A stretch of DNA of 4,303 nucleotides from Escherichia coli (GCF_003334355.1 NZ_QOWP01000069.1); one strand, 5' to 3'; positions 1-4,303 are shown, counted from the stretch's first letter. Made by a program: numbers and translations. The notes: generated by a model from the letters alone, not told the origin.

Positions 1-248
<248 letters not shown>

Positions 249-326: not shown

Positions 327-402
327 TGGTGCTGATAGGCAGATTCGAACTGCCGACCTCACCCTTACCAAGGGTGCGCTCTACCAACTGAGCTATATCA
401 GC
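327..402 (-). tRNA. thrT: tRNA-Thr (anticodon GGU), 76 nt with encoded CCA
   Basis: Reverse complement of 327..402 reads GCTGATATAGCTCAGTTGGTAGAGCGCACCCTTGGTAAGGGTGAGGTCGGCAGTTCGAATCTGCCTATCAGCACCA. It has a 7-bp acceptor stem (GCUGAUA/UAUCAGC), a T-loop GTTCGAATC, anticodon loop CUUGGUAAG, and a 3' CCA. Confidence 0.95.
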
Positions 403-408
403 ACATCT

Positions 409-483
<75 letters not shown>

Positions 484-599
484 ATCCTGGAACTCGGCTA
501 CCTGATTTTCATTCTGCACTGAATATCGAGAGAAGCTCTCTTCATTCGAGCCGGTAAGCGAACTTATCGTCTCGGGCTACGCCATCGCGTGGCCGAAAT

Positions 600-684
<85 letters not shown>

Positions 685-692
685 GGACTTGA

Positions 693-768
<76 letters not shown>

Positions 769-835: not shown

Positions 836-1129
836 ATTGGTCACATTTTATGCGACACGATGAAGAAACAGCCGAACGGAGGGCAGATTAGCACACTTTT
901 TCAACATCATTGTGCTCAACAATGCGCTCCTGCTAAACCATAATTCTTTTTATCAGATGGAATATCTGTCACATTGCTTTTCAACGATAGCTTCCTGGCA
1001 GAGATTTTTTCTTATTATTCCTCCCCATCTGGTGTTACCCTCCTGCCCATTAACCCATTCAACAGAACTGTGACGCGCCATGGCAAATATCGCTTTGCCG
1101 ATAGAGCTATGACCGCCAGAAACATGCTT

Positions 1130-2080
1130 ATGAGTATAAAAGAGCAAACGTTAATGACGCCTTACCTACAGTTTGACCGCAACCAGTGGGCAGCTCTGCG
1201 TGATTCCGTACCTATGACGTTATCGGAAGATGAGATCGCCCGTCTCAAAGGTATTAATGAAGATCTCTCGTTAGAAGAAGTTGCCGAGATCTATTTACCT
1301 TTGTCACGTTTGCTGAACTTCTATATAAGCTCGAATCTGCGCCGTCAGGCAGTTCTGGAACAGTTTCTTGGTACTAACGGGCAACGCATTCCTTACATTA
1401 TCAGTATTGCTGGCAGTGTCGCGGTGGGGAAAAGTACAACCGCCCGTGTATTGCAGGCGCTATTAAGCCGTTGGCCGGAACATCGTCGTGTTGAACTGAT
1501 CACTACAGATGGCTTCCTTCACCCTAATCAGGTTCTGAAAGAACGTGGTCTGATGAAGAAGAAAGGCTTCCCGGAATCGTATGATATGCATCGCCTGGTG
1601 AAGTTTGTTTCCGATCTCAAATCCGGCGTGCCAAACGTTACAGCCCCTGTTTACTCGCATCTTATTTATGATGTGATCCCGGATGGAGATAAAACGGTTG
1701 TTCAGCCTGATATTTTAATTCTTGAAGGGTTAAATGTCTTACAGAGCGGGATGGATTATCCACACGACCCACATCATGTATTTGTTTCTGATTTTGTCGA
1801 TTTTTCGATATATGTTGATGCACCGGAAGACTTACTTCAGACGTGGTATATCAACCGTTTTCTGAAATTCCGCGAAGGGGCTTTTACCGACCCGGATTCC
1901 TATTTTCATAACTACGCGAAATTAACTAAAGAAGAAGCGATTAAGACTGCCATGACATTGTGGAAAGAGATCAACTGGCTGAACTTAAAGCAAAATATTC
2001 TACCTACTCGTGAGCGCGCCAGTTTAATCCTGACGAAAAGTGCTAATCATGCGGTAGAAGAGGTCAGACTACGCAAATAA
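1130..2080 (+). CDS. coaA: Pantothenate kinase (type I CoaA), 316 aa
   Basis: The ORF 974..2080 contains the CoaA sequence from [20 protein letters not shown]... to ...[12 protein letters not shown], with the Walker A P-loop GSVAVGKST. The recalled CoaA N-terminus MSIKEQ corresponds to the ATG at 1130, which is Met53 of the six-frame ORF. The 52 upstream in-frame codons are not preceded by any SD and are taken as untranslated leader. Confidence 0.92.
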
Positions 2081-2086
2081 TTTGCA

Positions 2087-2117
2087 GGGGAGCGAATACT
2101 CCCCTTTCTTATTTTTC
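2087..2117. terminator. Intrinsic terminator hairpin between the convergent coaA and birA genes (stem GGGGAG 2087..2092 / CTCCCC 2099..2104, loop CGAATA, then T-rich tract 2105..2117 on the plus strand)
   Basis: The sequence gcaGGGGAGcgaataCTCCCCtttcttatttttctg sits 7 nt after the coaA stop codon. The T-tract follows on the plus strand, so it terminates coaA. The other flank on the minus strand is only moderately U-rich, so termination of birA is likely weaker. The hairpin and T-tract overlap the birA stop codon at 2109..2111. Confidence 0.6.
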
Positions 2118-3074
2118 TGCACTACGCAGGGATATTTCACCGCCCATCCAGGGTTTTATTATTCCATCCTGCTCAAGTAATAAAGCCCCCTGTTTGTCTA
2201 TTCCGCGTGAAATGCCAAATATTTCTTTATCACCAATGATAAGTTTCACTGGGCGATTAATAAAATTATCCAGCTTTTCCCAGCGCGACAGATAAGGTGC
2301 CAATCCTTCTTGTTCGAAGAGTTCCAACGCAGCACGTAATTCACGTATTAGCATGACCGCCAACGTATTACGATCGAGATTGATCCCCGCTTCCTGCAGC
2401 GTGATCCACCCCTGATTAACGACACTCTCTTCAACACGGCGCATTGCCATGTTGATCCCGGCTCCAATGACTATTTGCGCCGCATCGCCAGTTTTGCCAG
2501 TCAGCTCCACAAGAATGCCTGCCAGCTTGCGATCCTGCAGATAGAGGTCATTAGGCCATTTGACACGAACTTTATCTGCTCCCAGCTTGCGTAATACTTC
2601 CGCCATCACGATACCGATAACCAGACTTAAACCAATCGCCGCCGCCGGGCCTTGTTCCAGACGCCAGAACATCGACAAATATAAGTTTGCGCCAAAAGGC
2701 GAAAACCATTTCCGCCCCCGGCGACCACGGCCAGCCTGCTGGTATTCTGCAACACAGGCATCGCCCGATTTAAGCTCTCCGATACGATCAAGAAGGTACT
2801 GATTCGTGGAGTCAATAACTGGCAGCACGGCTACACTACCGCCATCCAGCTGACCCAATATCTGTTCAGCATTAAGTAACTGGATGGGCTCAGGCAGGCT
2901 GTATCCTTTACCCGGAACGGTAAAGACATCAACGCCCCAGTCACGCAGTGTCTGAATGTGTTTATTAATAGCCGCCCGGCTCATTCCCAGCGTTTCACCC
3001 AACTGCTCGCCAGAGTGAAATTCACCGTTCGCTAACAGGGCAATCAATTTCAGTGGCACGGTGTTATCCTTCAT
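2109..3074 (-). CDS. birA: Bifunctional biotin-[acetyl-CoA-carboxylase] ligase and biotin operon repressor BirA, 321 aa
   Basis: The translation [50 protein letters not shown]... has an N-terminal winged-HTH region and the biotin-binding glycine-rich motif [12 protein letters not shown]. Length and sequence match BirA. An SD GGAGA (plus strand tctcc at 3082..3086) lies 7 nt upstream of the ATG. Confidence 0.95.
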
Positions 3075-4099
3075 GAAATTGTCTCCACTGCGCTCACTTC
3101 ACCTGATGCACCAATAAAGCGGACTTCAGGCTCAAGCCAGACATTAAATTTTTCACCCACTTTTTGTCTTACATGGTGTGCCAGTTGCACCACATCTTCG
3201 CTTTTTGCATTGTCTTCATTAATGAGAACTAACGCCTGTTGACGGTGCACCGCAGCCCCACCCATTTGCATCCCTTTTAGCTGGCACTGATCAATAAGCC
3301 AACCTGCTGCCAGTTTTACTGAACCATCCGCCTGGGGGTAATTTGGTGCTGTTGGAAATTGTGACAGTAATGCTTCAGCCGTTTCGGCAGATACAACAGG
3401 GTTTTTGAAGAAACTACCGGCATTGCCATTCACTTTTGGATCAGGGAGTTTGGTGGTGCGCATATGACACACCGCATTAAATACTTGCTGTGGCGTTACT
3501 GTTGTAGGATCCAGACGAGTTAAGTCACCATACGTTAGTACAGGTTGCCACTCTTTTGGCAGACGCAGACCTACGGCTACAATGGCGAAGCGATCCTGGT
3601 ATTCATGTTTAAAAATACTGTCGCGATAGCCAAAACGGCACTCTTTGGCAGTTAAGCGCACTTGCTTGCCTGTCGCCAGTTCAACACAATCAACATAAGC
3701 GCAAACTCGCTGTAATTCTACGCCATAAGCACCAATATTCTGGATAGGTGATGAGCCGACACAACCAGGAATTAATGCCAGATTTTCCAGACCAGGCATA
3801 CCTTCCTGCAAAGTGTATTTTACCAGGCGATGCCAGTTTTCTCCGGCTCCTACATGTAAATACCACGCATCAGGTTCATCATGAATTTCGATACCTTTGA
3901 TCCGGTTGATGATCACCGTGCCGCGATAGTCTTCCAGAAAAAGTACATTACTTCCTTCACCCAGAATAAGAACGGGTTGTCCTTCTGCGGTTGCATGCTG
4001 CCAGGCATTGAGTAATTGTTGTTCGTCTTCGGCACATACAATGTGCTGAGCATTATGATCAATGCCAAATGTGTTCCAGGGTTTTAAGGAGTGGTTCAT
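3071..4099 (-). CDS. murB: UDP-N-acetylenolpyruvoylglucosamine reductase MurB (FAD-dependent), 342 aa
   Basis: The translation [54 protein letters not shown]... matches MurB, with the FAD-binding domain at the N-terminus. The stop codon TGA at 3073..3071 overlaps the birA ATG at 3074..3072. Confidence 0.95.
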
Positions 4100-4105
4100 A
4101 GCTGC

Positions 4106-4111
4106 TTTCCT
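4106..4111 (-). promoter_or_regulatory. Shine-Dalgarno sequence of murB (AGGAAA, 6 nt upstream of the ATG)
   Basis: Plus strand tttcct at 4106..4111 is AGGAAA on the minus strand. The spacer gcagct precedes the ATG at 4099..4097. Confidence 0.5.
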
Positions 4112-4192
4112 GATGCAAAAACGAGGCTAGTTTACCGTATCTGTGGGGGGATGGCTTGTAGATATGACGACAGGAAGAGTTTGTAGAAACGC

Positions 4193-4217
4193 AAAAAGGC
4201 CATCCGTCAGGATGGCC
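4193..4217 (-). terminator. Rho-independent terminator downstream of the 5S rRNA gene (stem GGCCATCC/GGATGGCC, loop TGAC, followed by TTTTTGCGTTTC on the minus strand)
   Basis: Minus-strand reading is aagcagaaGGCCATCCtgacGGATGGCCtttttgcgtttc. It is an 8-bp perfect GC-rich stem with a 4-nt loop and an immediate T-run. It matches the sequence I recall as the T2-type terminator of the rrnB operon. Confidence 0.85.
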
Positions 4218-4232
4218 TTCTGCTTAATTTGA

Positions 4233-4303
4233 TGCCTGGCAGTTCCCTACTCTCGCATGGGGAGACCCCACACTACCATCGGCGCTACGGCGTTTCACTT
4301 CTG
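4233..4303 (-). rRNA. rrfB: 5S ribosomal RNA, 3' 71 nt (gene continues beyond the right edge of the window)
   Basis: Reverse complement of 4233..4303 reads CAGAAGTGAAACGCCGTAGCGCCGATGGTAGTGTGGGGTCTCCCCATGCGAGAGTAGGGAACTGCCAGGCAT, which matches the 3' part of E. coli 5S rRNA. The symbol rrfB is inferred from its position next to murB, not from the sequence itself. Confidence 0.93.

Follow-up and report, generated by a model that had tools for sequence, protein, structure and literature searches.

At the boundary between murB and birA of Escherichia coli, the upstream gene's stop codon and the downstream gene's start codon fall within the same four nucleotides, which raises the question of how far the synthesis of BirA depends on the transcription and on the translation of murB. 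An earlier reading of this DNA, made from the sequence alone (hereafter, the sequence-only reading), had taken the arrangement for one of translational coupling within an operon. The window (the whole stretch of DNA analyzed, 4303 bases) was 100% identical to many E. coli chromosomes, including those of strains C and BLR(DE3), and was matched in all 5,426 complete E. coli genomes. Its layout (Table 1) was established from the RefSeq annotation of an identical genome, a tRNA scan, and Rfam. The products of birA and murB were recognized by NCBIfam equivalog models (NF008849, 655 bits, and NF000755, 542 bits, respectively; both above cut-off), and an equivalog model also backed the identity of CoaA. 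Orthologue alignments began at residue 1. BirA residues 1-321 matched PDB 1BIA over the full length, starting from Met1, and MurB residues 1-342 matched PDB 1MBB over the full length; thus, the gene boundaries that create the overlap are those of the proteins that have been studied.

Table 1 Features of the 4303-base window (positions counted from its first base)
Feature	Position	Strand	Basis
tufB 5' end	~1-212	-	RefSeq annotation of identical genome
tRNA-Thr, tRNA-Gly, tRNA-Tyr, tRNA-Thr	327-768	-	tRNA scan, Rfam
coaA	1130-2080	+	RefSeq annotation; NCBIfam equivalog
coaA/birA-gap hairpin	2086..2105	.	Terminator scan, sequence
birA CDS (biotin-protein ligase and bio operon repressor, 321 aa; start ATG 3074..3072)	2109..3074	-	ORF, RefSeq
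ATGA junction, -4 spacing	3071..3074	-	Sequence; NTGA in 79/79 related loci
murB CDS (UDP-N-acetylenolpyruvoylglucosamine reductase, 342 aa; stop TGA 3073..3071)	3071..4099	-	ORF, RefSeq
birA SD GGAGA	3082..3086	-	Sequence; anti-SD duplex -6.4 kcal/mol
murB upstream region (putative murB-birA promoter and 5' UTR)	4100..4192	-	Sequence; 66-region alignment
rRNA-operon terminator hairpin	4193..4219	-	Sequence; alignment to K-12
5S rRNA gene, 3' part	4234-4303	-	RefSeq annotation of identical genome, Rfam

The ends of the window fall inside tufB (position 1) and inside the 5S rRNA gene (position 4303), and most of the related loci used below (L002-L081) were whole contigs of approximately 4-5 kb; the window appears to be an assembly contig bounded by repeats and broken off at the start of the multicopy tuf and rRNA genes. 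The mechanical ORF of coaA began at TTG 974 (368 aa) and the annotated start was ATG 1130 (316 aa; region 974-1147, plus strand), with a second in-frame ATG 8 codons past the annotated start (M9), and the true N-terminus of CoaA could be ambiguous.

On the minus strand, the murB frame ends with GCA GTG GAG ACA ATT TCA TGA, and the birA frame begins with ATG AAG GAT AAC. The A, T, and G of the birA start codon occupy 3074, 3073, and 3072, and the T, G, and A of the murB stop codon occupy 3073, 3072, and 3071. When the ORFs were read on this strand, every coordinate given by the sequence-only reading for the two codons and for the Shine-Dalgarno (SD) sequence was found to be right. The annotated coding regions overlap by 4 nt (3071..3074), with the same boundaries in the RefSeq annotation. 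The codons themselves share two bases (3073 and 3072) and not three as had been claimed, a count that already follows from the coordinates of the claim. NTGA has been described as two overlapping bases, with the start codon providing three of the four (Brown and Wade 2025), and this contribution of the start codon may be the source of the three-base slip.

The SD sequence GGAGA (3086..3082) is followed by a 7-nt spacer, CAATTTC, and then by the birA ATG. It is formed by the MurB codons Val338 (GTG, 3088..3086) and Glu339 (GAG, 3085..3083) and by the first base of Thr340, and it does lie inside the last codons of murB, as had been claimed. Its predicted anti-SD duplex energy was moderate (-6.4 kcal/mol); that of murB's own SD was weaker (-4.3 kcal/mol). 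The junction is a -4 (NTGA) unidirectional pair in which two bases are shared, both genes are real, and the SD stands at a functional spacing inside the upstream gene, so the description of the arrangement as a classic one agrees with what is seen in the sequence. Within this one sequence, the junction is not beyond chance: ATGA was observed 16 times on this strand versus approximately 20 expected, so a single ATGA is uninformative alone, and GGAG occurred 3 times in murB. The informative evidence comes from comparison with related loci.

With one genome scanned per species, 80 Enterobacteriaceae loci were obtained (BirA identity, 78-99%). The murB stop and the birA start overlapped as NTGA in every one of the 79 loci with both genes (49 ATGA and 30 GTGA), and the second birA codon in these loci was always AAR or AGR, which keeps the A of TGA. 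The 30 loci with a GTG start (L015, L021, L022, L024, and 26 others) had the SD core and the TGA fixed. In Citrobacter koseri NCTC10786 (L007:1628-2659), the murB copy showed 9 stops in its nominal frame and 11 gaps relative to E. coli murB, at 75% DNA identity, and the junction and birA were intact despite these several frameshifts. A divergent C. koseri murB (50% identity) was considered and rejected, the copy being frameshift-ridden; because murB is essential, as is birA, the frameshifts are most likely long-read assembly errors.

Because conservation of the stop and start codons is expected anyway, the SD was tested at a synonymous site, for which 79 distinct murB sequences, from 78 loci and the window, were aligned by codon. 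The codon of Glu339, which is the core of GGAG, was GAG in 79 of 79 sequences; five other invariant MurB Glu columns were 56-81% GAA. Among 109 invariant degenerate columns, Glu339 was the sole column with a single codon, and the next most biased column reached 95%. The Val338 codon was GTG in 61/79 sequences versus 31/79 for Val335. The fixed GAG of Glu339 and the GTG bias of Val338 indicate, at the level of this codon alignment, that the birA SD is under purifying selection beyond the needs of the MurB protein. That the SD is functional is, in our judgment, very probable. The fixation of GAG illustrates, neatly and on a small scale, how the translation signal of a neighboring gene constrains a coding sequence, and the last five murB codons are not freely recodable.

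The sample was extended to eight BirA cluster representatives of 39-60% identity, obtained through a representative search and contig look-ups. A murB homologue was found upstream of birA in seven of these eight genomes and directly adjoined it in six. The overlaps, as called, were -4 (L086 and L090), -8 (L088 and L091), -13 (L084), and -14 (L093). In the seventh (L083:163-3472), murB and birA are separated by a gene for an MFS transporter, which has a 17-nt overlap with birA; a GGAG before the start is retained. In L092 (224-1949), where no murB was called upstream, the gene that comes after birA and overlaps it encodes a type III pantothenate kinase (coaX); in L090 (477-1866), birA likewise overlaps a downstream type III pantothenate kinase gene (coaX, Pan_kinase). 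Four junctions were read among BirA relatives of 49-60% identity, and three of them had GGAG at the same offset. Across the sequences compared, the tight co-directional join of murB and birA appears widespread, and the exact -4 spacing appears specific to the enterobacterial sample.

In L093 (494-5963; BirA identity, 39%), coaA, murB, and birA run in one direction with overlaps of -4 and -14, and tuf, secE, and nusG come after them; in L088 (1477-5969), murB-birA adjoins secE-nusG-rplK-rplA. The gene order of these two loci indicates that the association with the rrn-tuf-secE supercluster reaches beyond the Enterobacteriaceae, with coaA in the orientation opposite to that of E. coli. The genes murB, birA, and coaA have been regarded as an insertion between ancestral rrnB and tufB operons (Brandis 2019). 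A pantothenate kinase gene, of either type, adjoins birA in very different genomes.

These comparisons bear on the possibility that the 4-nt overlap is an evolutionary by-product, with only the stop, the start, and the SD kept under selection. Because the start codon gives three of the four NTGA bases, such an overlap arises easily, and it persists as both codons are essential; the abundance of -4 spacings has been attributed to ease of evolving (Brown and Wade 2025). The lack of a complex between MurB and BirA fits this account, as do the distant genomes with -8, -13, or -14 overlaps or an inserted gene, where -4 spacing is seen not to be universal. However, all 79 Enterobacteriaceae loci strictly kept the overlap, despite a start codon that is ATG in some and GTG in others. 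We consider a by-product origin possible, with the balance somewhat against it; it is compatible with coupling that operates as a consequence of the overlap.

MurB, a flavoenzyme, is monomeric, and BirA works either as a monomer or as a homodimer. The pair carries the entry "CMPLX not" in a curated E. coli list, so a stoichiometric complex is not recorded there (Huber 2023). The sequence-only reading had also proposed that the operon links peptidoglycan precursor synthesis to the biotin ligase and repressor. A functional link of this kind was not borne out: the two proteins are listed as forming no complex, and the partner of birA changes, as with the MFS gene inserted in L083 and the birA-coaX pair without a called murB.

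With regard to transcription, there is no intergenic space between murB and birA for a terminator or a promoter. A consensus scan of the sense strand found no terminator-like site near the junction and no promoter-like site with at least 9/12 matches anywhere in murB. A looser scan gave three 8/12 sites only (4079, 3845, and 3744), each lying over 640 nt upstream of birA, and neither scan showed a promoter-like site with at least 8/12 matches in the 3' two-thirds of murB. An internal sigma-70 promoter in murB was accordingly rejected as a candidate, with none at 9/12 and 8/12 matches only at a distance. Term-seq data for K-12 (Adams 2021, eLife, PMC7815308) place a 3' end after rrfB, a weak Rho-independent 3' end inside murB (K-12 4172639, window ~3517), and a coaA 3' end inside the birA stop codon (K-12 4174046, minus strand; window 2110). 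They also include one site that is Rho-dependent and antisense to birA (K-12 4173792, window ~2364). The Term-seq tables mentioning these genes listed no 3' end at the murB-birA junction, and none for birA. The genes and their coordinates were absent from the SMRT-Cappable-seq 2018 and Cappable-seq 2016 supplements, and the transcript datasets searched gave no murB transcription start or full-length murB-birA transcript; a search of the open-access full-text literature found no paper on murB-birA transcription or coupling.

The co-transcription proposed by the sequence-only reading is thus upheld by indirect evidence, namely a junction with no intergenic space, no promoter-like or terminator-like site nearby, and no Term-seq 3' end, an overlap kept in 79/79 loci, and a selected SD. 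From this evidence, we infer with high confidence that murB and birA are co-transcribed, this being the only economical reading.

One datum points toward a dedicated birA start. Kim 2012 (PLoS Genet, PMC3415461, Table S4) lists a 5' end at K-12 4171104 (older coordinates), which is window 3075 on the minus strand, 1 nt before the birA ATG; it was recovered in both replicates and classed as leaderless. If birA had its own transcript, from a promoter in the 3' end of murB or as a leaderless mRNA from -1, and if this transcript supplied most BirA, then the overlap would say little about expression. However, the 5' end rests on 5 reads versus a mean of 107.8 per start site, and the same table contains other starts at downstream genes of operons (leuC, leuD, rplD, and nuoN), a pattern suggesting that processing or noise generates a class of such 5' ends at internal starts. 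The sole -10-like hexamer, GACAAT, ends too near the 5' end (3 nt before it); no promoter-like site was seen in the 3' two-thirds of murB, as noted, and a leaderless mRNA would make a strongly selected SD pointless. Given the low read count, the other in-operon starts, the position of the hexamer, and the selection on the SD, we read this 5' end as processing or noise and not as a real start. It is a weak caveat, and a separate transcript as the main source of BirA is very improbable.

The co-transcribed unit would start within the approximately 90 nt between the rRNA-operon terminator and the murB ATG. This upstream region carries a weak SD (AGGAAAG) and a -10-like TAAACT at 4134..4129, and the alignment of 66 upstream regions revealed a near-invariant block, ACGGTAAACTAG. 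The conserved block, with TAAACT, lies approximately 60 nt downstream of the rRNA-operon terminator hairpin (4219..4193), and it is a likely candidate for the murB-birA promoter. The hairpin has the form AAGGCCATCC-TGAC-GGATGGCCTT, followed by TTT, and is identical to the second hairpin after rrfB in K-12; it sets the upstream limit of the murB-birA transcription unit. We take this hairpin to be rrnB T2 and the first K-12 hairpin to be rrnB T1. In K-12 (L082:200-460), rrfB is followed by the first terminator hairpin, approximately 170 nt, a repeat of the 5S 3' end (AACTGCCAGGCATCAAAT), and the second hairpin. In the window (4193-4243, minus strand), the 5S gene runs straight into the T2-type hairpin, and the T1-containing segment of approximately 170 nt between the two direct repeats is absent. 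Therefore, a single terminator separates the rRNA operon from murB.

At the other end, the unit would terminate at or near the hairpin that birA has in common with the convergent coaA. The gap between coaA (plus strand) and birA (minus strand) is 28 nt and holds this one hairpin (2086-2105), which is a clear intrinsic terminator for coaA and has a poor U-tract for birA. The T-tract of the coaA terminator consists of the last birA codons read backwards (2080-2111). The best promoter-like match of the window (TTGGCA, 16-nt spacer, TACAAT; 10/12) was antisense, inside murB (3556-3583, plus strand), and the weak murB 3' end at K-12 4172639 (~3517) lies approximately 40-65 nt from it. The Rfam scan of the window returned the four tRNAs only and no structured RNA element at the junction, and such an element was rejected on this result.

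At the level of translation, we considered how accessible the birA initiation region would be. The predicted fold of the 140-nt junction had a z-score of -0.42, with the SD and the AUG in a loop of the minimum-free-energy fold. The predicted mean unpaired probability from SD to AUG was 0.59, versus a coding-sequence background of 0.40 ± 0.14. Across the 79 orthologues, the mean unpaired probability was 0.42, which indicates no conserved occlusion of the birA initiation region. Structural occlusion of the birA ribosome-binding site was rejected on these predictions (z-score, -0.42; unpaired probability, 0.59), and the sequestered site on which coupling by RNA unfolding depends was not predicted here.

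Among co-directional genes of bacteria and archaea, no spacing is more common than the -4 NTGA type. Of the 2,987 unidirectional pairs of E. coli, 707 have a spacing from -8 to +6, and coupling requires overlaps or very short distances. In the sole systematic tests, four of five E. coli -4 pairs were found to be coupled by termination-reinitiation, and removal of the SD cut re-initiation by 60-90% in most coupled pairs (Huber 2019, PMC6728339). The exception in that study was bioBF, which has an unstructured initiation region and de novo initiation, and in which downstream translation was full when the upstream ribosomes were stopped. Because the murB-birA initiation region is predicted to be unstructured, like that of bioBF, independent initiation is a live possibility.

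At its extreme, independent initiation would mean that murB and birA are co-transcribed and translationally independent, with birA initiated only de novo by free 30S subunits and the ATGA playing no coupling role. The predicted open initiation region, free of significant structure, the selection on the birA SD in its own right, and the behavior of bioBF all accord with such independence. However, a ribosome that terminates on the UGA is already positioned on the AUG, which makes some re-initiation difficult to avoid, and in silico accessibility is a weak predictor. We regard complete independence as unlikely. Re-initiation by terminating ribosomes is likely on geometric grounds, independent loading of 30S subunits at birA is likely in view of the predicted accessibility, and a substantial contribution of coupling to birA translation seems somewhat better than an even prospect.

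The opposite extreme, in which BirA is obligatorily slaved to MurB translation, with no independent initiation and with Val338-Glu339 conserved mainly as the birA ribosome-binding site, is improbable. If it were true, then the BirA level, which sets the biotin level of the bio operon switch, would be a fixed fraction of a cell-wall enzyme, and the MurB transcript, starting approximately 90 nt behind a single rRNA terminator, might receive growth-rate-dependent read-through.

The explanation that we prefer lies between these extremes. A single two-gene transcription unit would comprise murB and birA, with birA translated from its own SD (GGAG), embedded in the MurB codons Val338-Glu339 and placed 7 nt before the AUG. 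The U and G of the birA AUG are the first two bases of the murB UGA, so ribosomes ending MurB would release their protein on the birA start, from which they could re-initiate (termination-reinitiation). Free 30S subunits would probably also load directly at birA, where the site is predicted to be unstructured. BirA synthesis would then depend on murB through the shared transcript and, probably in part though not necessarily in full, on MurB translation. As a whole, this combination of one unit, a dedicated SD, re-initiation, and probable direct loading is, in our assessment, reasonably probable.

The junction is real, correctly located, conserved, and ordinary. It was already known: every genome carries the annotation, and a published table of overlaps includes it (Huber 2023). 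It holds little for discovery, being a textbook operon junction in the best-studied bacterium. Its practical consequences concern the manipulation of murB: because both genes are essential, deletion of murB, CRISPR interference, synonymous recoding, or C-terminal tagging will disturb birA, either through polarity or through destruction of its ribosome-binding site.

In an alignment of 161 nt, K-12 (b3972/b3973) has the same junction, and the few substitutions all fall more than 80 nt before the ATG; the same -4 overlap is annotated there in RefSeq. K-12 differs farther upstream, where it has the T1-containing segment of approximately 170 nt between the 5S gene and the last terminator that the window is without. 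The birA sequencing of Howard, Shaw and Otsuka in Gene in 1985 and the murB cloning of Pucci, Discotto and Dougherty in J Bacteriol in 1992, as well as EcoCyc, are said to treat murB-birA as one transcription unit. Huber 2023 enters the pair as "-4, no complex" in a supplementary table of E. coli gene pairs.

Among the pairs for which coupling was reported (Huber 2019, PMC6728339), hyfH-hyfI, astD-astB, ydbH-ynbE, and menD-menH have, like murB-birA, an ATGA and an SD in the 3' end of the upstream gene. However, a stable structure that would suppress independent initiation is predicted in or close to the initiation region of hyfHI, astDB, and ydbH/ynbE, whereas the region of murB-birA is predicted to be open. 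In this respect, murB-birA resembles the uncoupled bioB-bioF pair (Huber 2019), which also has a stop/start overlap and no extended predicted structure. The two pairs differ in their SDs: that of bioF is very weak, and its removal had no effect, whereas that of birA is moderate and strongly conserved. A broader parallel is provided by birA-coaX, which is a widespread conserved pair (COG0340@COG1521) with a BirA-CoaX fusion model in NCBIfam (NF009862). There, as with murB here, birA is tightly joined, often with an overlap, to a co-directional housekeeping gene; in contrast to those systems, the kinase at this locus is of type I (coaA) and convergent, and the tight partner of birA is the upstream murB.
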